Origin: Candidatus Aceula meridiana
GTDB lineage: Bacteria; Omnitrophota; Gorgyraeia; Zapsychrales; Aceulaceae
Length of the DNA stretch: 64,000 nucleotides
Assembly (NCBI GenBank): GCA_030765185.1
Contig: JAVCDE010000024.1
Coordinates: 379,538 to 443,537 of the forward strand
Direction of reading: 5' to 3'
Positions 16,904 through 39,017 of this stretch are shown piece after piece. The position numbers were made by a program, and so were the translations under genes. Each line of letters begins with the position of its first letter. Positions within the stretch are counted from its first letter, which is position 1. The notes below the pieces were generated by a model. The model did not search any database. It saw nothing but the letters and a program-made list of their open reading frames with translations, and was not told the DNA's origin.

Positions 16904-17188
16904 TTAGACTTTGGTAATCGCAAAACGAAGTATGTCTTCATTTAATTTTAAAATAGGCCTAATTTTGGCAACGGCATCAGCTGGGCTTTCAAAATTAATC
17001 AAATAGTAAGTCCCTTCCGTGCGATGCTTCATCTTAAAAGCTAGTTTTTGTTTTTCAATCCAGACTTGACTATTAATAACCTTGCCACCTCCCTTAGCAA
17101 CAGCCTCCGTTGCATTCTTAACAATGCCATCTTTTTCGTCTTGATTAATTTTAGCGTCAACAATAACGACTAATTCATACTTACTCAT
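16904..17188 (-). CDS. rpsF: 30S ribosomal protein S6
   Basis: MSKYELVVIVDAKINQDEKDGIVKNATEAVAKGGGKVINSQVWIEKQKLAFKMKHRTEGTYYLINFES. Confidence 0.85.
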   Translation of the reverse strand: MSKYELVVIVDAKINQDEKDGIVKNATEAVAKGGGKVINSQVWIEKQKLAFKMKHRTEGTYYLINFESPADAVAKIRPILKLNEDILRFAITKV

Positions 17189-17817: not shown

Positions 17818-18475
17818 CGCCAAGAGCTGCTTCTTTAGGTTTCTCCTTAGTGACTTCCGGTTCCTCAGAGGCATCACCCTCTTCTGCCGATGCTTCTTCC
17901 TCTTCTTTCATAGGAGGCACCACAGAAATTATAATATCCTCAGGGTCATGGTCAGTTGTAACACCTTCCGGCAGCACGATGTCTTTAACATACACGGCAT
18001 CACCAATTTTTAATTCTGTAACATCAGCCTCGAGATTCTTAGGAATTTTCATTGGCAAGCATGTAATATTTAACTCCCAGAGATGATGATCTAGTGATCC
18101 ACCATCTTTAACGCCAATAGCATCACCACGCGCAACAACAGGAACATTGACCTCAATTTCTTCATCCAAAGAGATACGAATAAAATCAATATGCGTGATT
18201 TGATCAGAAACCGGGTGATATTGTGTTTCTTTAATAAGCGTTGCATAGTCACGCAGCTTTTTTTCGCCGTCCATCACGTTAAGATGCAACACAATGCTCT
18301 CCCCGTGATGAGCGCGTTCGATACGCTCAAAAGACCTTCGGTCAACCTTAATTGAAGTTGGCTCCTTTTCGCCGCCATAAACAATCGCCGGAATTCTGTC
18401 TTCCTTGCGAACTGCCCTTGAGCCTTCCTTGCCAACTTTTTCTCTTATTTGAACATTCAGTTGTATTTCTTCCAT
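17783..18475 (-). CDS. rplY: 50S ribosomal protein L25 / general stress protein Ctc, with acidic C-terminal extension
   Basis: IPAIVYGGEKEPTSIKVDRRSF...HHGESIVLHLNV and ...THIDF; a C-terminal beta-barrel domain and a Glu/Ala-rich tail. Confidence 0.85.
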   Translation of the reverse strand: MEEIQLNVQIREKVGKEGSRAVRKEDRIPAIVYGGEKEPTSIKVDRRSFERIERAHHGESIVLHLNVMDGEKKLRDYATLIKETQYHPVSDQITHIDFIRISLDEEIEVNVPVVARGDAIGVKDGGSLDHHLWELNITCLPMKIPKNLEADVTELKIGDAVYVKDIVLPEGVTTDHDPEDIIISVVPPMKEEEEASAEEGDASEEPEVTKEKPKEAALGDAPAAKEKKEG

Positions 18476-24369: not shown

Positions 24370-24416
24370 GTAAAAAGTAAAGGGAAGAAAACTTGAGCCT
24401 AATTTAAATAGCTCAA
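24370..24416 (-). terminator. Putative intrinsic terminator of the giant gene (stem UUGAGC/GCUCAA spanning its last codons and stop, followed by GUUUUCUUCCCUUUACUUUUU)
   Basis: Read from the sequence. The 6-bp stem has a 12-nt loop and a U-rich tract on the minus-strand RNA. Confidence 0.35.
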
Positions 24417-27400
24417 CTCTTTGGGTTCATCGGCCTCTATCTCCTGCGCCCACTCACTATCATCAAAATCTTCCTTATTAAGGCCCATTAAAGTCCAAAT
24501 ATTCGTGACAGGCGTAATATTAATAATAACAGGCACAAAACCTTCAATATTGTTAAAGTCTATGCCTTGGAGTTCTACCGGCAGTTCAAACTCAACCCCT
24601 TCGCCTTGGATTTGAAGATCAAGGGCTTGCGGGTTGAAGTCGATACCACCAGGGGCCGAGGAAAGTTCAGCAGCAGACAAATCCCGTAAAGGCTTATTTG
24701 CAATCTCAATAAGTGCATCAAGATATCTTTCGGTAATCAGCCTATCAATGACAACATATGGCCTACCCTTCAAAACACCATCTTTATCCTTAACCGATAT
24801 TTCTGCAGAATGCCATTGGATTAAATTTAATATCCTTCTCTGAAACTGATTCGAGTCTTCGAAATCTAATGCAAAAGTTGTATATGGAAATAAATAATCA
24901 TCCCTAGTCATCAGCTGTTGTTCCTTCAATCCTGAATCATAATCTACGAAGATCGTCACAGGAACACTTGGTTCGTTATCTTCTATACGATATCCATAAT
25001 GAAAAGTTTCCGAAACCGCCTTAATAAACTTCTTAAAAAATAGTTCAGCAACTTCCTTCTCAGTTGAGATAGACCCCTCAAATAAAGGAACTCTTTTCTT
25101 TGATTCCTCATTATGTTTCTTTTTTATTAATTCCAAAAACCCTGGCTTAATAATCATTGCATGCCCTGTATGTCTGAATTCTGTCATTCTCGCTACACGC
25201 TCTGCTGCCAAAACATGGATGGCAATCGTCTTATCTAATATGCGCGCCAACTCCAATATTTTTGCAACCATTCTCTCCTCAAACATTTTATCCGCACTTA
25301 CTTCCACACCTGAAACGGGAGAGAAATAATCCACGGTTGGCTGCTTCCCTACTAAATCAAAATTCATACCCAGGCTTTCCAAATATTTCTTCGCCTCAAA
25401 AGTCGCCTTTTGCACAGAAGTAGCTGCTATACCGCCAGATTTTCTCACCTCCGCAGATACCGTTGGGCTAGTCTTGCCCTTGACCCAAATTTTACATACA
25501 TCCGGCAAAAGAAAAGCTTTTGCATCATCGCCTGTCCTAGTCGGAGGGCCGGAAGGTCCAAGGTTCACATTCAAAATATCAAAAAATCCTAATTCTTTTT
25601 CCTGCGGCCCATGCAGCAGATCTACCTGCCGCAACATCACGACAGAATCACCCTCGTTGATAAGAACTTCTTCTATAATCTTTTGAACGATCTGCAAAGA
25701 TTTCTCGTATTGATTGTCTCCGGGCCAAACGACAAAATTCAAAAGCCCCTTAAACAAAAGCACCTTCTTGCCGGATATAATTTTTAATTCTGCAATATAG
25801 CTCTCTGCATCATCAATAAAATTCTTAGCCGTTCTATCAACCAGATTAACTCTCTCTGCCAAAGGCACACCAAGGTTGCGGCTAATCAACTCTTCTCCTC
25901 GGTCAAAATCATTTTGATCCTTGTTTATAGGAAAAGTCTTTCTAAAAATCGCTGGGATAGAATCGGCACCGCTGACCGGATAAATATAAGTAGTATTCTC
26001 TCCGAAATAATCCGATAAAGCTTTCATGAGATCAAAATATGCCTGTACTTCTATTTTTTCTTTTTCCGTCTTACCTCTCTCCGGTTTTCCTAAGACATTT
26101 TTTACGAGATTAATCGCATCCCGATATTTTTGTAGCGCTGCATTTACATACTCAATATTTCCCTTGATGCCTAATGGCTCGTTCTCATTCATCAGCGAGA
26201 AATTGGTTCCTTCCGAATCCGTTGCTGAACCCTCCGCCCCCTGCGCAGGCGACGAAATACTTTCCCCCTGCACGAAGTCGCTCTTTTCTCCTCCAAATGG
26301 CGAAGGCCTTATATCATTTGTATTTTCACCACTTGAACTGTTTTGAGGAAGATCAGGCTCATCCTTAACAAATCTTCTTAAATATTCAAATGCAATATGA
26401 ATAGCAGATAATTGATCATGAGCTTCTTTATACTCAGAATTCTCTCCGGTTTTCATCTCATCTAAACCTAATCTTGTCTGTATTTGATCGGGCGACCTTT
26501 CTTCTTTATACATTTCCTTTACTTTTGCGTTTCTTGTTCTTTTTAAACCTTTTAAATTTCCAGGTATTTCGTCTAGACCCAAAACAGCCAATGAATTTTG
26601 ATACATTTCATTATCCTTTGTGAAGCCATCACTATCATATCCTGACTGTTCACCTTGAGAATATGATCCTCTGGAATAATCTCTAACCGACTCATACACT
26701 TCATCCATAAAAACATTTAAATTTCTTAAATCTGTAATGCGTTCTTTATTTCTTCGCATAACATCACCTAAGGCTCTATAAAAATGATCCTGCTGACCAT
26801 CAAACCGATGTTCAAGAGAAACAAAAGCATTAACAATAACCTCTAAACTTGATAGATCCGTAATTAAGTGCTGCAAAACCATTACTCCATCGCTGAGAAG
26901 ATCATAATTTTTTCTATCTCTGTATCGCAGCCTTAGAAAAGCATCTAACAATATTTTACTCATAGTCCTATAGTCATCCTCAGAATCCAAAATAGCAACA
27001 ATATCACTTGCGCCATGTTCAATAATCTTCCAAGCTTCATCGCCTGCATCAACACTAGTTTCAACAATAGCTGGCCAGAATTGCCTAAAACGATCTTCTC
27101 CTAATCTTCTAGACAAAACACTTAAACTGCGAAAAAGTATTTCTTCGCTATCTGTAGCAGATTCTCTCATTCGAGCTAATTCAGAACCTACACTCAGCAC
27201 ATCCTCTGAGCTATTAATTAAAGAAACTGCTGCTTTAAGTCCTCCAGAAAAAGCATTAAATGTCTTACCCGAGCCAAGCCTTTGAGCTAATAACAATAAT
27301 TGGTCTCCTACAGATTTAAGAGATTCCTCGTCTTGAACTAAGTGTTTCAGATTTCCGATTCCATAATTTAATATATGAGGTGCGTATTCGCCTGCCTTAT

Positions 27401-30400
27401 TAACTAAATCTTTTGTAGAAGCCCAAGACTGACGAAAGGCTTCGTCTCCAAGTATTTTTCTCAAATTTCCCAATCCCCGAAAAACGTCACTTCTTTCATC
27501 TTCAGATATCTGTAGTCCAATAAGCTCATCAGCCATAGGAACAATTCCATCCAAGCTATCGATTAGGATGTTAACCACTTCAAATCCAGTTCCTAAAATC
27601 TGCCAATCACCCTTTTGATGAACTTTAATTAGTTCTTCACCAGCTTTTTTTAATTCAGGAATTGTTGTTATCAAATTCTTAATACTCTCAAGTGTCGCAC
27701 TAATCGTCCATTCATCATGTTGACCAAAAATATTTTGTAATTCTCTCATCACCGATTTTAAATCCTCATTAGTATTTACTAAAGGTCCCATTGCATTAAG
27801 AGTTTTAAATGCATTAAACCCTGCTGTCTCTTTATACTGTAAAAATTCATCTATCAATCTATTAAATCCATCAAAATCGTCATACAATGTTTTATATGTT
27901 TCAGCAACACTAAATAACCAACTTGCATTGTCTCCAAATCTTTTCTCGCTCTCAATGAGAGCCTGTCCGCGAACTCTTAATTCTTCTGGTGAATTTACGA
28001 ATGGACTTACAAGAGCGACCCCCCCAAGCAATGTTGGTGATTCATTAAAATGATCACTTGGTTCCATTGAATTATTCGCAAGCTCTAGCAGAACAGCCCC
28101 ATATTGACGCACATCTTCTGGCGTGTGAAGTTTATCCGTAATTCCTGCCAAAGCCGTCATTATTGCCGTTATTTTTTTAACCCCAGCTTCTTCGCCTAAT
28201 TTTACAATCTCAGGCCAAATAGTTTTTAGAGTCTCGCTATCAATACCTTTAAGCAATGTTGGTAAATTTCTTCTAAATAGAGGCTGAGCGCCTCGCCCAG
28301 CTGTATCAGATAATCGCACATAATCTCTCGCAATCTTTCCTGCATCATCAGGATCTTCGTACAACGCCTTAGCGTCTAAAAATGCATTGAAAGAGTCTGC
28401 TCGGGAGTCTGTTCGGGAATTTTTCAAATGTTTCCATGCCTCAATTAGTTCAGGCAGCAAAAGATCTAGCTGTGCAGACGGAAATTCCTCAATCATTCTT
28501 TTAAGCAAATGTCTGAAGAAATATTTACTTTCGCCGCCCACCCAGTCTACTTCCGACCAATCATAAATATCATTAAACATATCAATGCTATGACGTTCAA
28601 CGAGACGATCAAAATCTTTCTTATATTCTGCTATCAATTCCTGAAAATGAGGATTATTGCTAATAAAGTCCCTCTTTCTTCGTTCATTAGAAAGCAAAAG
28701 CGACTGCGCGGGGGTGTGGGCGGAAGAGGAAATCTTTTTTCCATCTTCGGAATAAATAGGCTCAATTATTTTTTCCTCTTCCTTCGCGCTATCAGTAACC
28801 TCGTTCCCCGCCCCGCTCGACGCATGAGCGTCATCAGGATTATAAACTTTTGCTTGAGCATCCTGCCCATCATCAATCGTGCTAGAAGAACCACTTCCAC
28901 TCTGCGCAAGGCGCGCTAAAGCACGATAGAGCGTACTATCGTTACCTTTTAAAGTTATAACTTTCTGAGTAGAATTCTCCCAAAGATGTTGAAATAAAGA
29001 ATTGTATAATTGAGGTCTACTATTTCTTAAAAATTCACACATTTCTTTGAGAGTTTTAGCTTTCGTGGAAGAAACAATAATGTCCGGAACAAAAACCTTG
29101 AAAACTTCTTTAACATGATTATTTGAGCATATTTCGAGAAAGTATTCTTTTGCCTTCTCACCATTCTTAAAATCTCCATCCTTCTCAACAAAGGTTATGT
29201 ACTTGCTAATTAAACTATCTGCAGTTGTTTTCCCACGAACTCCCGTTGGCACGATCGTACTATTTACCCCTACACTAATACTACTATGACTAAGGTCCAA
29301 TACTTCACCTATCATACGTGTTGTAATCTTTCTATCGTATTCATTCTCAAGCCGCTCCGTTAAATATGCGGCAAAACCCCGGGCAAACCAAAAGGTAACC
29401 CCCTTTTCCTTTTCAACGAAATCAATAACATATTGTGCAAACCCTCCTTCCTTTAAGAATTCTTTAATCTCTTCAACCAACTGTGCCTGCGAACGAGAAT
29501 TCTTCACTTGCTCAGTATTCTCCCAATCTTGAGTCAAACTTTTCCTTGGAATATAGGTAATAAACTCTTCTTTCGCTGTAATCCCAATACAGTCTGCAAG
29601 GGCACCTGCAATACTTTTTCCTTGCAGTGTGTCGCACTTTTCAATATTACTAATTCTTTTCTTTCCATTTGTTACTTTAATATTTTTTAAATCTTCCTGT
29701 CCGGCAGATACTGCCTTCCAAAAATCTTCTTGCGACTGAAATCTCTGAAGGCGTATTTGCCTGATCATATCTCCAATCGTAAAACCGTCTTCTTTTCTCA
29801 CATCTTCGAAAAGCTCATCAGCGCTTTTTTCCTTAACGATGCCAAACATTAAAAGCCCTAAAGAACGTGCGAGATCTTCATTAAAAGGAGCGGCCCAATC
29901 TGCAATTTTCTTGATTTCCTGAGGCGCACGAGGAAATAATATCCCTCCTTCTCGCCACAAGCGGATTGTCTCCTGGTGTCTGTCCAAACTCTTACTAATC
30001 AAAAAATTTAACATGCCCGTTTTCTTACAGAGTTCATCAAAGACTTCAGAAAATATATTATGCTCTTTAAAATAATCAGGATCTTCTAAAATAGTATTTT
30101 GTTTTCGCTCAATAAGGTCACGAATAAATTCTTCATCTAAAGGAGACAATATTTTCGATATCTCTTGCTCAAGAGAGTCTTCCCCAGTAAGAAGTTTTTG
30201 TTTCTTGTCAACTCGATAAGCCTCCCACGTGTGAGATTTCATCTGAGGATGAGAGGGCTCGCTACCTTTGGCCAAGGGTTGACCTTGAATTTTATAACCA
30301 GCCAATTCAATAATTTCTTTTGTTCTTTTTATTTCATTCTCAAAAAAGACCTTTCCTCTAGAATCCCCATAATCATTATAATAACCCAAAACAATAACAC

Positions 30401-33400
30401 CTTCATCCTCTAACTCTAACGCGTTCATCGCATTCTGAAAAATCTTAACCCTTGTCTTTTTCAAAATAGACGGATCTGATAAAATAGACATCATCACTAG
30501 CACCTGGGCAGGTTTTTTTATTATTTCAGCCTGATCAAAACTTGCTTTCCCATCAGGCACAACAGTCAAGTTATTGTTTTTTACCTTATTAGCCCATTCC
30601 TGCCATAATCCATTGATCCGCTTATCTGGCTCATAAAGGGACACCTTAGCGCCTGCTTCCAAAAACATCTCTTCCCAAAATATCATATTCGCAAATTCTT
30701 CTTCAGCAATAAATCCCATATTGACATATAGTTTGTTATGTAAGTAATCCTCTCCCGGCCCAACTACAATAACTTCTTGATCTTTAAGATCGGGCAAAGA
30801 CTCTACAAAAGAATGGGCCTGGGCAATGCTCTTGGGTTCTATAGGAGTAGCACTTGACTGTTTTTCATTTCTGCCTATTGCCGCAAGATCTTCTTTCTTT
30901 TTCGGTATTTCCATATTATTAACAACAGCGCTAAAAGAACCGGGCTTCTGCGCGAGATCGGGGGCAAAAGAAGATATTTTATCGCCGGAGGTCAAAGTCG
31001 AGGAACTGCTCACCGTCAATCCTTCTTCAAAACCTCGGGCCAGGTCTTCAGGATTCTCCGAATAACTATTAACAATGGTAATAATATTCTTAATATTGGA
31101 AGGAACGCGGTCAAGGTCACTGTAGCGACTGGAAGAGATGTCCGAAAGTCTTTCCACCTCGACTAAGCTTAATTCTCGTTCTTTTATTTTTCGCTTTCTT
31201 TTTTCTTCATTAACAGGAACGACTCTCACCAGCAAAAGGCGGTCAGGATCCTTCCAGTCATAGGAAACTGGTTGGCGTACTGTCTCTAAAATGACGACAT
31301 CGATCCTATTAATGAGGTTCTCCAAGGCTTCGAAATATTCTACGCCATCCCGCTCATCAAATTCATCATAATATTTTATTCCATAATTCACCAACTCTTT
31401 TCTGGCCGCTTGTTTCTCGGAATCACCTTCGCCATCCTTCCAGTCAAAATCAGTAATCCCTTCTTCCTTCAGCAATGTTTCAATAATGGCCCTTATGGCT
31501 ATGGTCTTTCCTGCGCCTGGCGGACCGTTGACGCAAATGACAGGATACTTCTTCCCTTTTTCGCTTCGTTTGAGGCCAAGCCATCGGCCGATTTCCTTCA
31601 TCTTATCCGCTGTCGTGACTAAAGCGCTATCCGCCCCCTGCGCAGGGTCGGCAAACTGTCCCTCTTCTTTTTTCTTTTGCTTAATAAGCTTTAACTGTTC
31701 AAGAGTAGGAATCGTCCCTTCTAAAGCTTCAATATTAACATGAGAAGGATTAAAATATTCAATAAACCGATCTTCTGCCCAAGAATCAACAACATAAGAT
31801 CTAATTTTAAGACCAGGATATTTTAAGCTTAAAGACTCAACTGTTTTTTCATATATTTCAGAGCCAAAACCCTTTCGTTGAATGTTGCTTTCTGAAAACC
31901 TTGAATTATCACCACGACCTACAGAAATCTCGTCCCTCATAAATTCTTTCCTTTTCCTGTCATAATCAATTCTTAAATATAATATATTATCATTTAAACT
32001 CTTGCTGGATGAAGAATCTACAATAAAATGAGATAGTCCTTCTTCAAGATTTTCAATTTCATCAAGAATCACAATATGGCTTGTCTTGTGATCTCTAATG
32101 ATTTCCGCAAACAAAAAGGTCAAATTATTATTTTTCTTAGCTTCTTCTAATTTCTGTCTCACCTTTTTAAAAACATCCTCTAAGCTACCTACGGCATTAA
32201 TGACAGCCGGCTCTTTATTATTATTTAACCGAGTGATTTCTTTTAAAAAATCTGTTTTCTGCACTAAGCTCTCATAAGTAAACAATTCTGGGTTATCTGT
32301 CCTCTGCTCTGGGGCGGAGGCGACAGAACTTGCAACGCTCCATACTGCCTCACGATCTTCTTCAACAACCATGACCTTTAAATTAACAGCTTTTCCTCCT
32401 TCAGGGTAATTTACGCGCTGATCAACAATCATAGCGCGAGGATTTTCTATCTTAATTTTTGCTGCTCTGTTCCTTGCCTTTTGCATTATTTCTTCCTTGT
32501 TAGAATCATAAACAGAAGCGCTTTTCTCAAATAAAACTTTCCCAGGAAATTGCGACTCAACCCTTACTAATTCTTTCGAACCTTCCTCCAAGATGGCAAC
32601 TTTCGTTCCAGGATAATCCTGAGCTATCTTTTGAGCTTCTCGAATTATTTTGGCTCTATTTCTCCTTTTTGAAATAATACCCTCATATAAAATAGCGTTT
32701 TTCAGATATCGATATGATTTCTTTTCAACAATCTGGATTAAAGGAATTTCACTTGTTTTTAGATTAAAATAAAGATGTTTATTAATATTAGAAATTCGAC
32801 CCTCAAAACCCATTTCATAAAAGAATGAAAAATCCAAAACATTGTTGGCCTCCAAGAAATCCCTCGAATTTCTTTTGCAGAGGGCGAGGGCAAAAGAAAC
32901 CAAAGCCCTTCCTAATCCTCGATAGTTCTTCTCTTCAACCCTAATTGCAACACGAACCTCTTTACGATTTAATCCTACTTGATCAGCGCGCAAATAATAA
33001 TGCCCTACTTCTTTATCCTCTCGAATCACTGCGAAACGATAACTGCCAGGGGTAGTGTCCTCCTTTAGCTGAAATTTAAATTCTTCCCCATCATTCGATT
33101 GAAGAACAATCTCTCCTTTTTCGACAAGCTTATCAATCAAACTTTCTGGATTATAAACCTTTATTGAACTTGCCTGAATGCTGCTATCGGAAGGGCTCTT
33201 CCTAGGATTATCTCTTTCGTCAAACCTCCTAAGTCCAATCTTGGTAAAAATATTGTTATACCCCTCTACAATTTTCTTCCGTAATGACGAAGACGCCTCC
33301 TGCGCGGGGTCAGAAATAGCAGACGAAACAACCAAATCGCCTAAGTCATCTACGATGCCGTCTGCATGAGGGTCCATCTTTTCTGCCTTGCCTTCGTTGC

Positions 33401-36400
33401 CTTCGATTAATCCAACAACATAAATCTTTTCTTTTTGCTCCTCTCTTTGCGTAAGAATGTTTCTAAATTCTTTAACATTCTTAGCTGAATCGTCAACGAT
33501 AATAACATTTTCATTAGGATCAATTTCATCAATCAACTTCTTAAAGACTTCGACTTTATTCTTGCTCGTTCTTGCAAAATGGATATCTTTAAAACTTTCC
33601 ATTAATCCAAGCTTCTCTAGAATAGGTTGCTTATCTTCCTTCTTAGCTCCTGAAAGAACCACAAGGGTTGCCCCTTGCGCTATCTTATCTTTTAAGAATT
33701 CAGCAACGCCCGGCTTAAACAGTATTCTCTCAACTTGATCCTTAGGGCGGGTCAAAACCTTATTAACTGCATCGTTTCTTGACTGCTGATAAAACTTATA
33801 AAGTTTGTCCACGAAGACATCTATATCAGTATCTGACGCAAACGAAAACTTATCCGCAAATTTAGATGTAATCAGTTGTTTAAAAATTGGCCCTGTAGAT
33901 TGGCCTGGGGGTTTTTGGAACTGATGACCCTCTTGCAGATCTGCTTCTTTGGGGGTAAACCCTTCAGGGTCTTTAACACCATTTTTTATCATGGCGTACA
34001 CGAAGGCAAAGGGAGCTTGGTCAAACTTTTCAACATCTATGATGACTCCGGCCAAATCGAGAATATAATAATTAACATCTTTTAAATCTAGCTGTCTAAA
34101 GGCTTCCTTTTTCTTTCTGCTCTCAAAAATACTTGTGCCAGGTTTGACTGTTGTTTCCACAGCAATATCCGGAGACCCTGGTAAAAAGAAATAGCCATCA
34201 ACGATTGGCTTTTCCAAATCTTTTTTTGCTTCTTTCTTTTTAGAAGAACTCGACGCCTTTTGTGCAACGATAACTTTTTCTAAGGATATGCTAAAATTCT
34301 CAAACCCTAAGCCTTTTAGGATGACGAAACTTTTTTCAGCATAAGATAAGGCATCTCCTGCAAGATACCCATTCGGTTTTAAAACACGGCCCATCTCTTT
34401 AAAAATTGCTTTAGGATTTTGTTCAGCTAAAAAATACGCATCAATTTCTGAGCCAAACATGACCGTTGAAACAGACGCATCTTTAAAAATACTTTTTAAA
34501 TTATGCGGCTTGTTTCCAATAAGATGAAATCGTCTTTTGATGTCTTCGCTCATCGCGCCAAAGCTTGTCTTAAGGCTTTCGAAGTAGCTCGGATTCCACT
34601 CTAAAACATAAATCTCTGCGCTCGGGAATTCCCTGGCAAGTCTAAAAAATTGATTTGCCCCTCTTTTAGCCCCAACAAAAAGAACTTTTCCTTTTTCTTG
34701 ACGAGTTTTATATCCTTTTTGCCCTAAAGCCTTTACCATGTCTCCAATCACGCGAACATTTTCATTATCATCAAGGATGTCGTCATATTCAAAAAGACGA
34801 AATTCTGGCATAGGTGCCGGTCCGTTCATAGCAACATTGCTAGCACGATTCAAATATGGGCGCACATATCCAAGTTCTTCGACCTTAGCTTTAAGTTCTT
34901 TTTCAGTCTGCCGGTCATTTAAGTCTACTAATCGATAATTGAGGACACCGCTCAAATTATTTTTTAAGATTGAAAATTGATCAACAAGGCCTGGCAAAAA
35001 TTTTAAAAGTTCTTTTCGGCTAATACCGGCATTGAGCAAAACAGTCTCAGAAAAAAATTTAGGAAAAGCAAAGCCCGAATCAATAATAGGAGTTGGTGAC
35101 TGCGTAGAAAAATGCTGACGGGATTTTCGCTCACCCTCATTAAGCTGTTGCTCACTGTGGACCACGCTAAAAACGTCGGGGCTATCAATTCTTGTTCTGT
35201 CCCAAACTCCGGCATAAGTCATATATTTTAATTTTTTCGGATTAAACACGCCCTCGTCAATCAAATCATAAGTCGCAGAAATTACGATGGCTTCGGTATT
35301 TGAATGGGCACGGTAATCGGCAAAGCCTTCACCATTAGAAATAATAAGATCTGGTTTTCGTTTGCGTAAAATATTTTTAACTCTTTCGATGTCTTCTTCT
35401 CCTGCGGCTCCACCCCATCCTTCTTCTGAATAAAAAGTCGAATCCATAGGGTCATGAATTTTTTCGTAAGGAATTCCCAAGCTCATCATGGCAGTTTTGT
35501 TTTCAAAAATTCTAATAGCTGCTTTAATATGCCCTATCGACTCAACATCCCGTGCACCCCAGCGAGCTTTTTCGTTAAAAGATTCTAAAAGAGCATCTAT
35601 AAGATGCAGTAAATGTTGTCGGTTCTCTTGAATAGAATGCGGATGAAAAATCTCTAAAAAGAGCGCCTGAGCGCGCAGGTCTTTTTCTTTTTCCGTCATG
35701 TGTGTCCAAGGGTCAAAATCTGACGGGCTTGTATGAAGATTTTGACTTTCTAAGGTCGGGATAAGCTCTTGCGCCACTTGACTTGTAGTTCTTTTGCTCA
35801 CAGCATCGAGCTTTGCCTTATCCCATCTCTTAATACGCCTCAAAACTTGAGCAACATAAAGATCATCAACAGCCGTAGTACCTTTGGCCGTATAATGAAT
35901 CTCAATGTCGTATCCTTGCTTTGCCAAAACGCGAATATTCTCCCTTTTTGCAAAATAATCATCATCGAGATGCGGGTTAATAATATCTACTTTTTTATCT
36001 CTGTCGCCGGGCTCCCAGCCAAGTTTCTCAATAATGCCATTAGGGGTAATCGTATTGTCTCGGATAGCTTGAGCAATTTCTTTCTTTAGCTCTTCCCAAG
36101 CACCATACTTTTTAAGAGATTTTAAATTGTACTCGACAATCTTGCGGACAATCGGTGGCGCACCAAAAAGTTTGGCAGCATCACTTTCTAGAAATTCAAA
36201 CACATCTTTCTGTTTAAAATTAAGGAGAGTTTTTTCCGGGTTATTCTTTTTTACATCATCGACAAGATATACAAAAAATTTCCTAATCATTTTAGGTGTC
36301 CACTCGTCAATCAAATCAAAATGCCAAAAATGACGCCTGAGCCGCAAGTTTTCTTCAGATCCACCTGCGACTAAATAACTGCCGCGTTGATCGCGCACCG

Positions 36401-38750
36401 CCTGTAGAGGATAAACAACCTTGCGCTCTTTTCCTGACCCTTTAAAGACACGGCCTTCTTCGATACCATAATGCATAGAGTTACGTTTGCTAGCAGTTGT
36501 GGCAAACACGATATGTTTTGGATTCTTTTTACGATTTAAAAGTTCTTTAAAACCATAGGTCATGAACCCATAGCCACGTTTGACCATGTTGCGATAACCG
36601 CCATTTTCCTTGGCATGTCCGGCTAAAACATAGTGGCCAGGAACACCTAAAAATGCATCTTGAATGAGGCGTATCCCCTCCTCTAAAAATGCCATATGGC
36701 CTTTACCTTCATAAGAAGGCCCTACTCCCCAGATCACCATATTCGGTCCGTTACGCAGTTTTAGCTTTCCAGACATCTGCTTGGTTTGCTTTTTCATGGC
36801 ATTCCAAAAGCGATACTGGGCATCTGTTTCGCTTAATTTACCGGATAAAAATTCTTCAATTTTGCTGCCGTGGGTATCAATATCTTTTAAAAGACTTTCA
36901 TATTCTTTGCTTGTCATCTTGCGAAGCTTTTTGCCATCAGCAACAAGATCGCCGTAAAAGAAATAACGCTGAGTTTCAGGAACCTGCAAGAGATCAAGCA
37001 TATTGTTTAAAATATTGGGGAAAGAGTGATAGTCTGTGCGCTTTTGAGGAGCAAGGCCGTCTAAGGCAAAGGCCTCAACACGATTCATATCTGGCTTGTG
37101 ACCAAAATCGATGTTGGGTTTGTTTAAAAATTCTTGCGTTTTTGCTTTATCCCAAGTATTGAGAATATCAGCGAGTAGACGGTACGACACCCAAGGCGTA
37201 TCGCCTGTTGCAAAGTTGACTACAAATTTCTCACCCGATTTAGCAGTGCGCTCCCAAGCTTGGTACTCAGCAATAAATTCTTCAACAAATTTCTCAGCTA
37301 CGGCCACGATATCCTTTAGGATGTGGGCATCCATAGTCTCAGATTGATTAACCGTAAAATTATAAATCGCCTGGGCTGGATTTTGATAATATCCGAGCTC
37401 TCTAAGCTTTTCAAAAGCTGTGCGGACCTCTTGCTCTGATGAGTCTTCCTTAATAGAGGTGATGATTTTCTTTGCCTGCTTTTTGGCTTGTACTGCGCTA
37501 GAGACAAAAAAACTTGCCGCACTCTTATCTCCAGCTGACACAAAAACAAGATCAATATCCTGAAAGCTTGAGGATGTTACCCATTGCGGCAGAGGTGCGG
37601 ATATGGTTGAAGTAAAACTTAAAACTTGGGTAATATTCCAATTGATTCCACCGGAAAAATACTTGCGTGGAACATTCTTTTGCGTATATTTATCATATTC
37701 AACTTTAATATAATCGCAAACACCTTTTTTAAATGACTCGATATACTGAGAATAAATTTCTTCAGTGGCGCCTTCTTTAGCTAAATCAACGCCTTTAACT
37801 TTGCTTTTATCCGCGTACGCTTTTGTTAAAAATGCGTTTTTAAGTTTTGTTTTAAACCATGTTGCCAAAATCATGGAGTGATAGATTTGACGAAGCTGGG
37901 AAAAATTACGCCCGAAGTTAACTTCATGTTCAAGCTCAGGAATAATAATTTCACGGACAATATCAGAAGTAAGCGTAGAACTTTTAGCATTGTTAGCGCT
38001 TAACGTAGAGCGTTTAGCGTTTAGATTATTTATTTCTTCTATGCGTTGCGCACTATCCGCTATCCGCTGTTCGCTATGCGCTAGATAGTCTTCCTCCAAC
38101 ATTACTTTTAGTTTGCTCTCAGCAACAAACGCCCTATCCCCGTTCTCGTACACAACTGCTTTTTCAGGTACAATCCATACCTTACTAAAAGTATCGACCG
38201 GAATGTCCGTTGTCCCATATTCTTCGTAGGCCCTTTCATAAACTCTTTCCCAGAACTTTTTGCCCATCTCATCTTCAGGATAAATTAAGGAAGCTGTGAC
38301 TTGTTTTAACAAATAATCTTGGGCAAGCATGTCACGGCCCATTTCGGTTACGCCTAAAGACTCTGGCACAATACGGCCTTTTTCATAAGGCGAAAGGTTG
38401 ACCCAGAGATCATCCTCAGGAAGAGTTAAAGATGCTAAGAAGTAACGTACAAGTTTTTCGCTCTCTCCTTTTAATTCCGCCGTTTCAAGCCGAGATTGGC
38501 CTTTATCCAGAATAAAATTAAACTTCAATGGCTCTTTGGGATAGACTTGAATTCCTCTTAAAATCGCCGGAGTAAATGAGGGGCTTAAAGGCACTGTAGC
38601 GCCAGGGATAGGAAGGCCTAAAACATTGGAGGCTATTGCCTTAGGAAGATACTGGGGAAGGCATACGTTCTCTGTAAAGGCCACTAAAATAAGTATAGCA
38701 ATAGCCTTAAAAACAGATCGAAATCTATATCTGTTAATAATAAGATTCAT
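24399..38750 (-). CDS. Giant 4,783-aa multidomain protein with an N-terminal signal anchor, a string of enzyme-like domains, a helical tandem-repeat array and a large unassigned C-terminal region
   Basis: Single uninterrupted ORF of 14,352 nt in the provided six-frame track. N-terminus MNLIINRYRFRSVFKAIAILILVAFTENVCLP. Domain motifs are listed as separate features below. The antisense ORFs inside it are short shadow ORFs. Confidence 0.8.
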   Translation of the reverse strand: MNLIINRYRFRSVFKAIAILILVAFTENVCLPQYLPKAIASNVLGLPIPGATVPLSPSFTPAILRGIQVYPKEPLKFNFILDKGQSRLETAELKGESEKLVRYFLASLTLPEDDLWVNLSPYEKGRIVPESLGVTEMGRDMLAQDYLLKQVTASLIYPEDEMGKKFWERVYERAYEEYGTTDIPVDTFSKVWIVPEKAVVYENGDRAFVAESKLKVMLEEDYLAHSEQRIADSAQRIEEINNLNAKRSTLSANNAKSSTLTSDIVREIIIPELEHEVNFGRNFSQLRQIYHSMILATWFKTKLKNAFLTKAYADKSKVKGVDLAKEGATEEIYSQYIESFKKGVCDYIKVEYDKYTQKNVPRKYFSGGINWNITQVLSFTSTISAPLPQWVTSSSFQDIDLVFVSAGDKSAASFFVSSAVQAKKQAKKIITSIKEDSSEQEVRTAFEKLRELGYYQNPAQAIYNFTVNQSETMDAHILKDIVAVAEKFVEEFIAEYQAWERTAKSGEKFVVNFATGDTPWVSYRLLADILNTWDKAKTQEFLNKPNIDFGHKPDMNRVEAFALDGLAPQKRTDYHSFPNILNNMLDLLQVPETQRYFFYGDLVADGKKLRKMTSKEYESLLKDIDTHGSKIEEFLSGKLSETDAQYRFWNAMKKQTKQMSGKLKLRNGPNMVIWGVGPSYEGKGHMAFLEEGIRLIQDAFLGVPGHYVLAGHAKENGGYRNMVKRGYGFMTYGFKELLNRKKNPKHIVFATTASKRNSMHYGIEEGRVFKGSGKERKVVYPLQAVRDQRGSYLVAGGSEENLRLRRHFWHFDLIDEWTPKMIRKFFVYLVDDVKKNNPEKTLLNFKQKDVFEFLESDAAKLFGAPPIVRKIVEYNLKSLKKYGAWEELKKEIAQAIRDNTITPNGIIEKLGWEPGDRDKKVDIINPHLDDDYFAKRENIRVLAKQGYDIEIHYTAKGTTAVDDLYVAQVLRRIKRWDKAKLDAVSKRTTSQVAQELIPTLESQNLHTSPSDFDPWTHMTEKEKDLRAQALFLEIFHPHSIQENRQHLLHLIDALLESFNEKARWGARDVESIGHIKAAIRIFENKTAMMSLGIPYEKIHDPMDSTFYSEEGWGGAAGEEDIERVKNILRKRKPDLIISNGEGFADYRAHSNTEAIVISATYDLIDEGVFNPKKLKYMTYAGVWDRTRIDSPDVFSVVHSEQQLNEGERKSRQHFSTQSPTPIIDSGFAFPKFFSETVLLNAGISRKELLKFLPGLVDQFSILKNNLSGVLNYRLVDLNDRQTEKELKAKVEELGYVRPYLNRASNVAMNGPAPMPEFRLFEYDDILDDNENVRVIGDMVKALGQKGYKTRQEKGKVLFVGAKRGANQFFRLAREFPSAEIYVLEWNPSYFESLKTSFGAMSEDIKRRFHLIGNKPHNLKSIFKDASVSTVMFGSEIDAYFLAEQNPKAIFKEMGRVLKPNGYLAGDALSYAEKSFVILKGLGFENFSISLEKVIVAQKASSSSKKKEAKKDLEKPIVDGYFFLPGSPDIAVETTVKPGTSIFESRKKKEAFRQLDLKDVNYYILDLAGVIIDVEKFDQAPFAFVYAMIKNGVKDPEGFTPKEADLQEGHQFQKPPGQSTGPIFKQLITSKFADKFSFASDTDIDVFVDKLYKFYQQSRNDAVNKVLTRPKDQVERILFKPGVAEFLKDKIAQGATLVVLSGAKKEDKQPILEKLGLMESFKDIHFARTSKNKVEVFKKLIDEIDPNENVIIVDDSAKNVKEFRNILTQREEQKEKIYVVGLIEGNEGKAEKMDPHADGIVDDLGDLVVSSAISDPAQEASSSLRKKIVEGYNNIFTKIGLRRFDERDNPRKSPSDSSIQASSIKVYNPESLIDKLVEKGEIVLQSNDGEEFKFQLKEDTTPGSYRFAVIREDKEVGHYYLRADQVGLNRKEVRVAIRVEEKNYRGLGRALVSFALALCKRNSRDFLEANNVLDFSFFYEMGFEGRISNINKHLYFNLKTSEIPLIQIVEKKSYRYLKNAILYEGIISKRRNRAKIIREAQKIAQDYPGTKVAILEEGSKELVRVESQFPGKVLFEKSASVYDSNKEEIMQKARNRAAKIKIENPRAMIVDQRVNYPEGGKAVNLKVMVVEEDREAVWSVASSVASAPEQRTDNPELFTYESLVQKTDFLKEITRLNNNKEPAVINAVGSLEDVFKKVRQKLEEAKKNNNLTFLFAEIIRDHKTSHIVILDEIENLEEGLSHFIVDSSSSKSLNDNILYLRIDYDRKRKEFMRDEISVGRGDNSRFSESNIQRKGFGSEIYEKTVESLSLKYPGLKIRSYVVDSWAEDRFIEYFNPSHVNIEALEGTIPTLEQLKLIKQKKKEEGQFADPAQGADSALVTTADKMKEIGRWLGLKRSEKGKKYPVICVNGPPGAGKTIAIRAIIETLLKEEGITDFDWKDGEGDSEKQAARKELVNYGIKYYDEFDERDGVEYFEALENLINRIDVVILETVRQPVSYDWKDPDRLLLVRVVPVNEEKRKRKIKERELSLVEVERLSDISSSRYSDLDRVPSNIKNIITIVNSYSENPEDLARGFEEGLTVSSSSTLTSGDKISSFAPDLAQKPGSFSAVVNNMEIPKKKEDLAAIGRNEKQSSATPIEPKSIAQAHSFVESLPDLKDQEVIVVGPGEDYLHNKLYVNMGFIAEEEFANMIFWEEMFLEAGAKVSLYEPDKRINGLWQEWANKVKNNNLTVVPDGKASFDQAEIIKKPAQVLVMMSILSDPSILKKTRVKIFQNAMNALELEDEGVIVLGYYNDYGDSRGKVFFENEIKRTKEIIELAGYKIQGQPLAKGSEPSHPQMKSHTWEAYRVDKKQKLLTGEDSLEQEISKILSPLDEEFIRDLIERKQNTILEDPDYFKEHNIFSEVFDELCKKTGMLNFLISKSLDRHQETIRLWREGGILFPRAPQEIKKIADWAAPFNEDLARSLGLLMFGIVKEKSADELFEDVRKEDGFTIGDMIRQIRLQRFQSQEDFWKAVSAGQEDLKNIKVTNGKKRISNIEKCDTLQGKSIAGALADCIGITAKEEFITYIPRKSLTQDWENTEQVKNSRSQAQLVEEIKEFLKEGGFAQYVIDFVEKEKGVTFWFARGFAAYLTERLENEYDRKITTRMIGEVLDLSHSSISVGVNSTIVPTGVRGKTTADSLISKYITFVEKDGDFKNGEKAKEYFLEICSNNHVKEVFKVFVPDIIVSSTKAKTLKEMCEFLRNSRPQLYNSLFQHLWENSTQKVITLKGNDSTLYRALARLAQSGSGSSSTIDDGQDAQAKVYNPDDAHASSGAGNEVTDSAKEEEKIIEPIYSEDGKKISSSAHTPAQSLLLSNERRKRDFISNNPHFQELIAEYKKDFDRLVERHSIDMFNDIYDWSEVDWVGGESKYFFRHLLKRMIEEFPSAQLDLLLPELIEAWKHLKNSRTDSRADSFNAFLDAKALYEDPDDAGKIARDYVRLSDTAGRGAQPLFRRNLPTLLKGIDSETLKTIWPEIVKLGEEAGVKKITAIMTALAGITDKLHTPEDVRQYGAVLLELANNSMEPSDHFNESPTLLGGVALVSPFVNSPEELRVRGQALIESEKRFGDNASWLFSVAETYKTLYDDFDGFNRLIDEFLQYKETAGFNAFKTLNAMGPLVNTNEDLKSVMRELQNIFGQHDEWTISATLESIKNLITTIPELKKAGEELIKVHQKGDWQILGTGFEVVNILIDSLDGIVPMADELIGLQISEDERSDVFRGLGNLRKILGDEAFRQSWASTKDLVNKAGEYAPHILNYGIGNLKHLVQDEESLKSVGDQLLLLAQRLGSGKTFNAFSGGLKAAVSLINSSEDVLSVGSELARMRESATDSEEILFRSLSVLSRRLGEDRFRQFWPAIVETSVDAGDEAWKIIEHGASDIVAILDSEDDYRTMSKILLDAFLRLRYRDRKNYDLLSDGVMVLQHLITDLSSLEVIVNAFVSLEHRFDGQQDHFYRALGDVMRRNKERITDLRNLNVFMDEVYESVRDYSRGSYSQGEQSGYDSDGFTKDNEMYQNSLAVLGLDEIPGNLKGLKRTRNAKVKEMYKEERSPDQIQTRLGLDEMKTGENSEYKEAHDQLSAIHIAFEYLRRFVKDEPDLPQNSSSGENTNDIRPSPFGGEKSDFVQGESISSPAQGAEGSATDSEGTNFSLMNENEPLGIKGNIEYVNAALQKYRDAINLVKNVLGKPERGKTEKEKIEVQAYFDLMKALSDYFGENTTYIYPVSGADSIPAIFRKTFPINKDQNDFDRGEELISRNLGVPLAERVNLVDRTAKNFIDDAESYIAELKIISGKKVLLFKGLLNFVVWPGDNQYEKSLQIVQKIIEEVLINEGDSVVMLRQVDLLHGPQEKELGFFDILNVNLGPSGPPTRTGDDAKAFLLPDVCKIWVKGKTSPTVSAEVRKSGGIAATSVQKATFEAKKYLESLGMNFDLVGKQPTVDYFSPVSGVEVSADKMFEERMVAKILELARILDKTIAIHVLAAERVARMTEFRHTGHAMIIKPGFLELIKKKHNEESKKRVPLFEGSISTEKEVAELFFKKFIKAVSETFHYGYRIEDNEPSVPVTIFVDYDSGLKEQQLMTRDDYLFPYTTFALDFEDSNQFQRRILNLIQWHSAEISVKDKDGVLKGRPYVVIDRLITERYLDALIEIANKPLRDLSAAELSSAPGGIDFNPQALDLQIQGEGVEFELPVELQGIDFNNIEGFVPVIINITPVTNIWTLMGLNKEDFDDSEWAQEIEADEPKELSYLN
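26650..28450 (-). repeat. Giant protein: array of >=5 degenerate ~95-aa alpha-helical repeats (approx aa 3440-4030)
   Basis: Recurring signature around a conserved Trp. Examples: TIWPEIVKLGEEAG, DNASWLFSVAETYK, HDEWTISATLESIK, FRQSWASTKDLVNKAGEYA and FRQFWPAIVETSVDAGDEA. Confidence 0.5.
30350..30786 (-). other. Giant protein: second Rossmann/methyltransferase-like domain (approx aa 2655-2800)
   Basis: EVIVVGPGEDYL (G-x-G), an acidic strand end VSLYEPD, and ...ELEDEGVIVLGYY. Confidence 0.3.
31190..31566 (-). other. Giant protein: P-loop NTPase, kinase-like (approx aa 2395-2520)
   Basis: Walker A KKYPVICVNGPPGAGKTIAIRAI and a Walker B-like RIDVVILET. Confidence 0.55.
31700..32030 (-). other. 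Giant protein: second GNAT-like segment (approx aa 2240-2350)
   Basis: NIQRKGFGSEIYEKTVESL resembles GNAT motif A. The match is weaker than for the first GNAT. Confidence 0.25.
32750..33140 (-). other. Giant protein: GNAT N-acetyltransferase domain (approx aa 1870-2000)
   Basis: Motif A EEKNYRGLGRALVSFALALC (R-x-x-G-x-G/A) with flanking beta-strand pattern. Confidence 0.55.
33410..34075 (-). other. Giant protein: HAD-like hydrolase fold with degenerate motif I (approx aa 1560-1780)
   Basis: YYILDLAGVIID is motif I-like but not DxD. LVVLSGAKKED is motif II. The Lys in FARTSKNK and the IIVDDSAKNV motif IV are also present. Confidence 0.35.
34300..34850 (-). other. Giant protein: class I SAM-dependent methyltransferase domain (approx aa 1300-1480)
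   Basis: Motif I VLFVGAKRGANQF and an acidic beta-2 end at IYVLEWNPS. Post-II motif RVLKPNGYLAGD, the canonical LLKPGG-type. Confidence 0.6.
36440..37270 (-). other. Giant protein: NagB/Pgl-like sugar-phosphate isomerase-deaminase domain (approx aa 495-770)
   Basis: Three collinear matches to GlcN-6-P deaminase / 6-phosphogluconolactonase signatures. VVNFATGDTPW matches LGLPTGGTP. FALDGLAPQKRTDYHSF matches FNMDEYVGL..ESY.SF. VIWGVGPSYEGKGHMAFLEEG matches LFMGGVGNDGHIAFNEP. Confidence 0.5.
38661..38750 (-). other. Giant protein: N-terminal signal peptide / signal-anchor (aa 1-30)
   Basis: Positively charged n-region (RYRFR) followed by the hydrophobic stretch AIAILILVAF. Confidence 0.6.
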
Positions 38751-38830
38751 ATATTTATATTTGTATAAGAGTTAATTTTTTCAAGTATAGCATATTCCCC
38801 CCAGATTGCCAGAAACCCACAGACCTAAAA

Positions 38831-38853: not shown

Positions 38854-39017
38854 CCTTGCCAAAAGCAATAGAGGTAGATATAATTATCAAAAGATTTTTA
38901 AAATTTAAAACAATCCCGATTTTTCGCTTTGCGAAAAACGAGATAAATTCGCCCTTCAAATTTACACTCACTAACGTTCTGTACCATTGGGGCTTGATTA
39001 TTGAGAAAGGCTCATTT

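Follow-up and report, generated by a model that had tools for sequence, protein, structure and literature searches.

A 4,783-residue multi-enzyme protein of Candidatus Aceula meridiana is a putative Sec-exported member of an Omnitrophota family with conserved ends and shuffled cargo

The window analyzed here, a stretch of 64,000 nucleotides of contig JAVCDE010000024.1 from Candidatus Aceula meridiana, contains one giant gene. It lies on the minus strand at positions 24399 to 38750, starts with ATG, and encodes 4,783 amino acids in one open frame. NCBI lists an identical protein, 'hypothetical protein P9M07_05260', on a 537,930-bp contig from a metagenome-assembled genome (MAG) of Candidatus Aceula meridiana, which NCBI places in the PVC group, Candidatus Omnitrophota. 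An Omnitrophota-like source had been correctly suspected in an earlier reading of the DNA that was made by a model without database searches (the sequence-only reading). The protein belongs to a family that was found only in Omnitrophota-type genomes and whose members have a fixed head and a fixed tail, with shuffled cargo between them. We consider it reasonably probable that the protein is a Sec-exported member of this huge head-and-tail cassette family, that the shuffled enzymes are active, and that in this protein they serve amino-sugar deacetylation and deamination.

A search of 5.8 billion proteins recovered 528 relatives of the query, and 119 of these, not counting the query itself, were listed. 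The listed relatives are 2,637 to 6,393 residues long and cover only 7 to 18% of the query. Essentially all of them match query residues 1 to ~400 at ~50 to 55% identity and ~110 match residues ~4690 to 4783, with almost nothing common between the two ends. A search with the middle 4,290 residues of the query recovered only six proteins, all through a single module (the NagB/PIG-L module described below). Thus, the domain order is unique, yet the two ends place the protein in a family that they define. The sequence-only reading had known of no described family with this domain order. This stands for the exact order but not for the protein as a whole, since more than 8,000 clusters share its first ~370/last ~80 residues.

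The size of the family was evident from searches with a profile of the N-domain, the conserved region that follows the signal peptide. The profile matched 8,372 clusters at 50% identity among 1.84 billion representatives (6,727 of them at an E value of ≤1e-30), and the match was N-terminal in all 150 matches listed. Family members are 2.6 to 6.9 kaa (thousand amino acids) long. At least 578 loci in contigs from one genome per species encode the N-terminal part. Their record titles nearly all name Omnitrophota or Omnitrophica, or are those of automatically labelled MAGs ('uncultured Planctomycetales ... binchicken'), labels that are unverified. Single MAGs contribute 4 to 6 loci among the best 80 of the at least 578. 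Some genomes have tandem arrays on one strand: loci L004, L055, and L074 form a run on contig CAZYOA010000005.1, at ~55.6, 64.6, and 81.1 kb, and the relatives P0079 and P0108 share one 29-kb contig; the query, by contrast, stands alone among housekeeping genes. The upstream neighbor was another family member at 10 of 79 loci, and clustering of the upstream open reading frames (ORFs) of those 79 loci revealed no conserved accessory gene, with only other family members recurring.

Between the family ends lie 2,000 to 6,000 residues of unrelated, shuffled modules and Ser-rich linkers, and the position of a given module varies from member to member. The syntenic locus L009 encodes the N-domain, a helix-turn-helix (HTH) module, and the NagB module, in this order, in one frame. 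At L001, the syntenic locus of the congener Ca. Aceula lacicola, identity in the N-domain is 57%, but the next ~1,000 residues are unrelated and methyltransferase-like. The precomputed Pfam assignments of the paralogues include enzymes of central carbon metabolism (PGM, PGK, PGI, TIM, aldolase, GAPDH, enolase, PPDK, PEPCK, malate synthase, isocitrate lyase, and acyl-CoA dehydrogenase). Also present were UbiB, accompanied by an M48 peptidase, and signaling and modification domains, namely, response regulators, HATPase, methyltransferases, GNATs, and HTH domains.

The N-terminus of the query has the features of a Sec-type signal peptide. Residues 13 to 31 are its sole strongly hydrophobic segment (Kyte-Doolittle value of 2.07; the only one of ≥1.6). 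In 119 aligned family N-termini, the n-region has a mean net charge of +3.3, Pro-Pro stands at positions -8/-7 of the putative cleavage site, position -3 is A, S, V, or G, position -1 is Ala in 109, and position +1 is Gln in 102. The 25 residues after the site carry no net charge on balance. The query sequence AIA/SN at residues 38 to 42, in which the slash marks the predicted site, falls in the aligned cleavage-site column of the family. The charge, the Pro-Pro pair, and the -3/-1/+1 pattern argue for a cleavable signal peptidase I (SPase I) signal peptide rather than a signal anchor. The sequence-only reading had called this segment a signal anchor. Its export signal was upheld, and in place of the anchor a cleavable signal peptide, with cleavage expected from the -3/-1 rule, fits better.

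The most conserved part of the family begins directly after the signal-peptide site. In the query, the motifs of the N-domain (~330 residues) include WVNLSPYE at residues 116 to 123 and PRKYFSGG at residues 361 to 368, and all of the invariant columns (WVNLSPxE, QDYxLKQ, ExNxGxxFxxLRQ, and YFxGG) are kept. The query matched the N-domain profile with an E value of 9.2e-170, which is partly circular because the query was included in the profile; the pairwise N-domain identities of 46 to 58% are independent of that score. The N-domain had no match among Pfam and NCBIfam models, its profile found nothing among PDB sequences at E values up to 10, and no fold match was found for its structure model. 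The predicted model is mixed alpha/beta without a beta-helix (predicted local distance difference test score [pLDDT] of 70.5).

The opposite end is also conserved. The C-domain has the consensus GGIDxNP...GFxPVIINITP...LLLG over ~57 residues, followed by an acidic tail, and was located at the C-terminus in 110 of 119 homologues. Its hydrophobic stretch forms a second Kyte-Doolittle peak near the C-terminus in many members. The tails of the homologues are variable and acidic, with a frequent (E)LS(L/Y)x ending. A D-x-A-M-[LI] motif precedes the C-domain in many members. There was no match to the C-domain in Pfam and NCBIfam, and a profile search with it recovered only Omnitrophota-type proteins, mostly short fragments at contig ends, which provided no new context.

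The most informative result on where the protein acts is its composition, as the family is extremely poor in cysteine. Of the 4,783 residues of the query, 10 are Cys (0.21%), and the median of 124 family members is 0.06%, versus 1.01% for the other 45 ORFs of the window (p of 4e-11). Dispensable cysteines are purged from passengers that cross the envelope unfolded or that reside in oxidizing compartments, such as those of autotransporters and TpsA proteins. Catalytic cysteines of the family were retained. The SCTTN motif of GAPDH is kept once in P0040 and in both GAPDH domains of P0085, and the K[KR]CGH motif of isocitrate lyase is kept in six members. In P0076, the only Cys among 4,294 residues is that of the isocitrate lyase active site. 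Retention of catalytic Cys despite the depletion indicates selection for activity. Together with the signal peptide, the purge of Cys and the conservation of catalytic Cys favor enzymes that are active outside the cytoplasm of the producer over a cytoplasmic metabolon.

The cargo of the query was scanned against Pfam, with the whole protein and with tiles, and against NCBIfam and PDB sequences. One module pairs a NagB-like deaminase/isomerase (residues ~480 to 810, with FATGDTP at 513 to 519 and GKGHMAFLEE at 682 to 691) with a PIG-L/LmbE-type deacetylase (residues 924 to 1206, with PHLDDD at 926 to 931 and AHS at 1148 to 1150). A profile of six copies of the module matched glucosamine-6-phosphate deaminase (PDB 1ne7; E value of 1.4e-6) and diacetylchitobiose deacetylase (E value of 3e-3), and PIG-L was found in 5 of the 6 copies (best E value of 2.9e-8). 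The other copies lie at positions 466, 1624, 1706, 2229, and 5224 of P0121, P0122, P0123, P0038, and P0124, respectively, and are 32 to 45% identical. The same two domains are paired in PRK02122, a stand-alone NagB-like and LmbE-like fusion of 653 residues. The NCBIfam model of PRK02122 matched the PIG-L half of the query over model positions 431 to 594 with an E value of 3.3e-17. However, the score of 61.9 bits is far under the cut-off of 384, the query module has large insertions, and it resides within giant, putatively exported proteins; it is thus a related module rather than a member of PRK02122.

Further enzyme domains follow. The methyltransferase-like domain, of the S-adenosylmethionine (SAM)-dependent type, also resembled Methyltransf_11 (E value of 1e-3; 20.1 bits versus a cut-off of 21.2) and aligned with residues 424 to 624 of P0002, which themselves match Methyltransf_11. 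The HAD domain exceeded the cut-offs of two additional models, NIF (26.4 bits; cut-off 21.8) and HAD_2 (24.0 bits; cut-off 23.8), and was 44% identical to residues 2268 to 2520 of P0003. Its motif I is DLAGV (residues 1565 to 1569), that is, D-x-A instead of D-x-D, and its motif IV is DD (residues 1753 to 1754). A D-x-A motif I is known from some HAD enzymes that are not phosphatases, such as phosphonatase. With the second Asp of motif I replaced by Ala, the chemistry may differ from that of standard phosphatases, and the domain may not be one of them. Two independent weak signals, Acetyltransf_7 (E value of 0.07; model positions 4 to 83 of 84) and the tabtoxin-resistance acetyltransferase 1ghe (E value of 0.6), are suggestive of a GNAT-like domain. 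The P-loop domain matched AAA_22 with 30 bits (cut-off 27) and AAA_18 over model positions 1 to 115 of 128, and it resembles P0024 and P0094, both of which carry PF13238. The signatures PHxDD, GH.AF.E, Walker A, and HAD motif IV, all of which have catalytic meaning, are intact in the query. The enzymes of the query thus appear to be functional because their active-site motifs are kept.

The HTH-like module aligned with residues 133 to 371 of P0121, 1819 to 1948 of P0002, and 3311 to 3424 of P0003. The HTH match is significant in P0121 (HTH_3 at residues 340 to 390) and weak in the query itself (HTH_92; E value of 0.2). The helical-repeat-like region gave several offset alignments to P0005, P0006, and P0012, and an offset-score scan of its self-similarity had peaks at 38 and 75 residues (z of 3.3 and 2.7). 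The region did not match Pfam, a relaxed self-BLAST found nothing, and its helical nature is presumed. Coordinates are summarized in Table 1.

Of the enzyme-like folds, at least six, that were proposed in the sequence-only reading, the HAD, P-loop, and NagB-like domains were recovered, the SAM-dependent methyltransferase and one GNAT were found at the weak level described above, and a second GNAT (residues ~2190 to 2370) and a second Rossmann-like fold (residues ~2640 to 2860) found no support in Pfam, NCBIfam, or PDB. The linkers that it described between domains were seen as 13 low-complexity stretches. It had not included the PIG-L/LmbE deacetylase, the XRE-HTH-like segments, the helical-repeat-like region, or the conserved N- and C-domains.

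Table 1. Features of the giant gene product and selected genes of the window
Feature	Residues	Window position	Strand	Basis or remark
Sec-type signal peptide (predicted)	1-40	38631..38750	-	Basic n-region, h-region at residues 13-31, predicted SPase I site AIA/SN
Family-defining N-domain	41-372	37635..38630	-	Motifs LPxPG, NPLxFDF, WVNLSPYE, GRDLLAQDYxLKQ, EVNxGxNFxxLRQ, PRKYFSGG
NagB-like and PIG-L/LmbE module (~870 residues)	444-1315	34806..37421	-	Profile matches, recurrence in paralogues
Class I SAM-methyltransferase-like (weak)	~1330-1500	34251..34763	-	Methyltransf_25, E 6e-4
HAD-superfamily hydrolase	1562-1779	33414..34067	-	PF00702, 33.6 bits (cut-off 26.4)
GNAT-like acetyltransferase (weak)	1905-1983	32802..33038	-	Motif A-like YRGLGRAL at residues 1943-1950
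Region without assignable domain	2010-2370	31641..32723	-	No Pfam, NCBIfam, or PDB match, E up to 10
P-loop NTPase, small-kinase-like	2395-2530	31161..31568	-	Walker A GPPGAGKT at residues 2409-2416
Region without match	2650-2860	30171..30803	-	No family or PDB match
Shared module with XRE-type HTH-like segments	2893-3235	29046..30074	-	For example, residues 3143-3162
Helical-repeat-like non-enzymatic scaffold	3350-4020	26691..28703	-	Weak ~38-residue periodicity
Globular region	4195-4690	24681..26168	-	No Pfam/NCBIfam match; not common to listed homologues
Family C-domain	4701-4757	24480..24650	-	GGIDFNP...LP...GFVPVIINITPVTNIWTLMGL, Pro-rich hydrophobic end
Acidic C-terminal tail	4758-4783	24402..24479	-	Ends ...KELSYLN
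PpiD/SurA-like periplasmic chaperone, divergent neighbor		38856..40511	+	Membrane helix, SurA_N, Rotamase_2
LpxC and FabA/FabZ-like dehydratase fusion (450-residue ORF)		8880-10232	-	
BamA, five POTRA domains		11830-14295		~10 kb from the giant gene; only Omp85 gene of the window
LolCE-like permease		2511-3710		

According to the reading that we favor, the whole polypeptide would be threaded through Sec out of the cytoplasm, possibly with assistance from the adjacent PpiD-like chaperone. The constant N- and C-domains would form a shared cassette by which the chain is handled, so that it is either kept in the envelope or transported further, and the variable enzymes would act outside the cytoplasm of the producer. 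The query would most plausibly act on amino sugars, by de-N-acetylation followed by deamination or isomerization, with accessory methyl, acetyl, and phosphoryl transfer by its other domains. The destination may be the periplasm, the cell surface, or a partner or prey cell. The sequence-only reading had proposed a surface 'toolbox' for the envelope sugars of a host or prey. The NagB-like/deacetylase module and the signs of export speak for this idea. However, the SAM-, acetyl-CoA-, and ATP-dependent domains of the query, together with the glycolytic and glyoxylate-cycle enzymes of its paralogues, require cofactors of the cytoplasmic type and do not fit a purely surface-exposed role.

Several observations weigh against export and activity outside the cytoplasm. 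The signal-peptide call comes from rule-based statistics, and 10 of 120 members have no strong N-terminal hydrophobic segment at the threshold used, possibly because their starts were miscalled. The structure model of the N-domain is of moderate confidence, so that its status as a domain without a known fold is provisional. The link between Cys paucity and secretion is an analogy with autotransporter and TpsA passengers. No outer membrane translocator or sorting enzyme was identified, and the neighbors that recur at the 79 loci are only family members. The cofactor-dependent domains of the query have no obvious supply of SAM, acetyl-CoA, or ATP in the periplasm or at the surface, and paralogues with NAD-, ATP-, and CoA-dependent enzymes of central metabolism present the same problem. 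Furthermore, all of the family sequences derive from MAGs.

Delivery into a partner cell would be one way out of the problem of cofactor supply. A more specific version of export can be considered, which we regard as possible but less likely than not. The head and tail would be a dedicated export or delivery cassette that moves active, cytoplasm-type enzymes and regulators into the cytoplasm of an attached host or prey cell, or into a shared compartment, making the family a set of 'metabolic effector polyproteins'. The delivered cargo would be modules of glycolysis, the glyoxylate shunt, amino-sugar metabolism, and methyl, acetyl, and phosphoryl transfer, as well as response regulators and HTH modules. 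Passage would depend on envelope machinery that is yet to be recognized, and the shuffling of modules would parallel that in polymorphic effector systems. The cultured Ca. Velamenicoccus archaeovorus, a different Omnitrophota species, has been reported to make open cytoplasmic contact with its prey and to transfer its RNA into the prey (PMC13153191).

The cofactor requirements could also be satisfied if the protein never left the cytoplasm. The N-terminal helix might anchor the protein to the inner membrane with the enzymes on the cytoplasmic face, where their cofactors are available, and the fusion would save space and fix stoichiometry in an ultra-small cell. Nearly all of the cargo domains are of cytoplasmic type and cofactor dependent, consistent with such a membrane-tethered metabolon. 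Nielsen and Lui read almost half of the Omnitrophota proteins of ≥10 kaa as anchored in the inner membrane with cytoplasmic domains (10.64898/2026.06.07.730766), and West-Roberts et al. caution that an error in topology could underlie the assignment of glycolytic domains to the outside of the cell (10.1101/2023.11.21.568195). However, in the present family positive charges precede the hydrophobic segment and a conserved A-x-A/Q site follows it, the most conserved part of the family starts directly after that site, and the syntenic neighbor is a periplasmic chaperone. Furthermore, extreme Cys depletion with catalytic Cys kept has no cytoplasmic rationale. We therefore consider the cytoplasmic metabolon unlikely.

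Another possibility, which is compatible with Sec export, is that the protein is a polyprotein precursor from which small enzymes are released by cuts in the linkers, either before it is exported or afterwards. Earlier work on Omnitrophota giants has proposed post-translational cleavage (10.1101/2023.11.21.568195). The tripeptide PAQ occurs six times in the query (residues 458, 1815, 2369, 2747, 3347, and 4168) versus 0.42 expected (Poisson p of 5e-6). All of these except the one at residue 2747 lie where modules join, several of them as phi-S-S-x(0-3)-PAQ, and the signal-peptide site of the family is likewise A/Q. In contrast, PAQ was not enriched family-wide (63 observed versus 56 expected; 17 versus 12 in linkers), the phi-SS motif was only 1.8-fold enriched family-wide, and no peptidase domain was found in the query with Pfam. 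The conserved domains at both ends also speak for handling of the chain as a single unit, at least initially. Cleavage of the chain into separate enzymes is thus rather improbable, and the idea that PAQ marks cleavage sites throughout the family was rejected, since its enrichment is limited to the query and a few others. The PAQ sites of the query could reflect lineage-specific processing or a recombination junction. P0002 and P0049 each have four PAQ, and the syntenic A. lacicola gene has FSPAQRD. The motif [VILFM]-S-S-[SAPFTV] stands at many linker starts (9 versus 2.3 expected in the query; 281 versus 157 in the query plus 123 homologues), and 'SSP', 'VSS', and 'SSS' are 3.5- to 4.7-fold enriched in linker segments.

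A role as adhesins or coats has been suggested for giant ORFs of Omnitrophota (PMC10066038). The export signal, the long helical-repeat region, and the conserved ends are features that would suit a surface adhesin or structural coat whose enzyme-like domains mainly bind the host. However, Pfam revealed no Ig, cadherin, lectin, discoidin, dockerin, or beta-helix repeats, and there are no internal repeats. The conservation of catalytic residues, including Cys that is otherwise purged, points to catalysis rather than mere binding. An adhesin or coat is therefore very unlikely.

That the giant gene might be an artefact, either neighboring genes joined by sequencing error or a decaying pseudogene, was considered because there is a single assembly of the genome, the exact product has no record in the contig index, and no Shine-Dalgarno-like sequence is evident before the ATG (38751 to 38812). 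The leader is A/T-rich (...ACAAATATAAATAT ATG), and a -35/-10-like pair with an extended TG is located upstream of the gene at 38812 to 38784. As noted in the sequence-only reading, the frame is uninterrupted and the plus-strand ORFs within it are short, the largest being 157 residues (36689 to 37162). GC content by codon position is even along the gene (GC1 of 0.48 to 0.52, GC2 of 0.31 to 0.37, and GC3 of 0.24 to 0.38), each block of 500 codons averages ~0.50/0.33/0.35 at positions 1/2/3, and the alternative frames have 23 to 70 stops per 500 codons. The even composition and the many stops in the other two frames do not indicate a frameshift fusion of several genes. In addition, the N- and C-terminal family domains are each at the correct end of the query, and the same end-to-end architecture, at 2.6 to 6.9 kaa, is present in hundreds of independent assemblies. 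The recurrence of the NagB/PIG-L module within five other giant ORFs and the single frame at L009 also speak for a real gene. The frame statistics and the family architecture led us to reject a fusion or frameshift artefact, the chance of which we regard as negligible, and confirm a genuine single giant gene with one coding signature, as the sequence-only reading had maintained. Tandem Repeats Finder detected a single weak 49-bp array; there was no other sign of internal repeats or recent tandem expansion. No meaningful match in PADLOC or PHROGs suggested a defense-system or phage origin.

The divergently oriented neighbor is a PpiD/SurA-like chaperone (SurA_N_3, E value of 1e-21; Rotamase_2, E value of 9.5e-21), and a PpiD-like gene is in the same divergent position at L001 and L009. 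A functional link between this chaperone and the giant protein would be consistent with this arrangement. The TTG at 38856 is probably too far upstream to be the true start of the chaperone, for which an ATG near 39018 (MLKILRKKG..., with a membrane helix after it) is the better candidate. The ATG near 39018 would leave a divergent intergenic region of ~270 bp. Other neighbors in the window are housekeeping genes (HisG, IspE, SpoVG, GlmU, a thioredoxin-like protein, and RmuC), and no gspD/E/F or pilZ was seen among the window ORFs scanned. BamA, the LpxC-FabZ fusion, and the LolCE-like permease make up a neighborhood of lipid A and outer membrane biogenesis and show that the organism is diderm. 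Peptidyl-tRNA hydrolase-like and L25/Ctc-like ORFs (17185 to 17877 and 17783 to 18475, minus strand) overlap by ~95 nt, and the GTG start at 17877 of the downstream ORF (17185 to 17877) is probably too early.

Multi-enzyme giant proteins of Omnitrophota were reported by Seymour et al. in 2023 (PMC10066038). The Archaeovorins of West-Roberts et al. 2023 (10.1101/2023.11.21.568195) are proteins of ≥30 kaa whose glycolytic domains were predicted to lie outside the cell. The catalogue of proteins of ≥10 kaa of Nielsen and Lui 2026 (10.64898/2026.06.07.730766) includes a class 1 of 'multi-enzyme metabolic clusters' with methyltransferase, GNAT, and HAD domains, and the lipocone paper of Burroughs and Aravind also treats multi-enzyme giant proteins of Omnitrophota. 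On this point the sequence-only reading was incomplete, as long Omnitrophota proteins with methyltransferase, GNAT, and HAD domains had already been reported. The present family is like the Archaeovorins and class 1 clusters in that it is from the same phylum, combines many enzyme Pfams in one chain, commonly has signal peptides, and, at the query locus, has a Rotamase_2 peptidyl-prolyl isomerase (PPIase) nearby; such PPIases near giant genes have been described (10.1101/2023.11.21.568195, section 11). Shared enzyme content includes methyltransferase, GNAT, and HAD and, in paralogues, PGM, glycolytic enzymes, PPDK, and response regulators.

There are also clear differences. The earlier sets comprise proteins of ≥10 or ≥30 kaa in which membrane helices number in the tens to hundreds; these proteins carry C39/S8 peptidase and SecA-like domains and are flanked by type II/IV secretion clusters. 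The query, at 4,783 residues and with a single hydrophobic segment, lacks the length of ≥30,000 residues and the many transmembrane segments of Archaeovorins, and it had no C39/S8 peptidase or SecA-like Pfam match at E values up to 1 to 5. A Rotamase_2 PPIase is adjacent to it, with its other neighbors being housekeeping genes. With regard to class 1, the query is under the ≥10,000-residue threshold and has the corresponding content, with HAD, P-loop, PIG-L, methyltransferase, and weak GNAT domains once each and no repeats. Neither a shared N-terminal domain nor a GGID...PVIINITP tail is mentioned in the Omnitrophota giant-protein papers. Multi-enzyme Omnitrophota giants were already known, and the head-and-tail cassette class (2.6 to 7 kaa, no internal membrane helices) was not described in the literature searched.

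Known secretion systems offer partial likenesses. The type IX secretion system (T9SS) is a Bacteroidota system with a C-terminal sorting domain of ~80 residues. As an analogy only, T9SS cargo resembles the family in combining a Sec signal and highly variable enzymes with a short C-terminal domain that is conserved among many paralogues of a genome. However, T9SS cargo does not have the conserved 330-residue N-domain of the family, and neither the whole query nor its C-terminal 133 residues matched Por_Secre_tail in Pfam or NCBIfam. The precomputed Pfam list of P0021 includes PF18962, which we take to be this T9SS domain. TpsA, CdiA, and Rhs proteins share with the family a Sec signal, a conserved N-proximal domain of ~250 to 330 residues, a long variable chain, multiple copies, module swapping among paralogues, and few Cys. 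In contrast to them, the query had no Pfam match to Haemagg_act/TPS (two-partner secretion), filamentous-hemagglutinin, Rhs/YD, or toxin domains, and the variable part consists of mid-chain metabolic enzymes rather than the C-terminal toxin tip of polymorphic toxins. Furthermore, unlike in TpsA, the N-domain model is mixed alpha/beta and not a beta-helix, and no TpsB is adjacent. There was no HemolysinCabind match as in RTX/type I adhesins, from which the query also differs by its Sec signal; its acidic tail is a loose resemblance only. Nor were KS, AT, ACP/PCP, C, or A domains of nonribosomal peptide synthetases or polyketide synthases (NRPS/PKS) among the Pfam matches at E values up to 5. 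The lack of such Pfam matches bears out the sequence-only reading, which had set the protein apart from adhesins and from RTX, Rhs, and NRPS/PKS proteins. Membership in these groups and in the TPS and T9SS families was rejected because the defining domains were not found.

Among the features of the Omnitrophota that still lack an explanation, giant multi-enzyme genes stand out most. Earlier work centered on proteins of 10 to 147 kaa, which are beyond experimental handling. The cassette family is larger and more tractable, with more than 8,000 clusters, lengths of 2.6 to 7 kaa, and no internal membrane helices, and it offers three handles: a textbook signal peptide, a 330-residue domain that is rich in invariant residues and has no known relative, and a 57-residue C-terminal motif. 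The purge of Cys with retention of catalytic Cys provides a simple sequence-level argument that active glycolytic-type enzymes work outside the cytoplasm of the producer. If the proteins were instead cytoplasmic, the family would still represent a striking large-scale fusion of enzymes in cells of minimal volume. If the enzymes do act outside the producer, this would bear on how ultra-small suspected predators or parasites exploit partner cells and would add a new kind of secreted cargo system.

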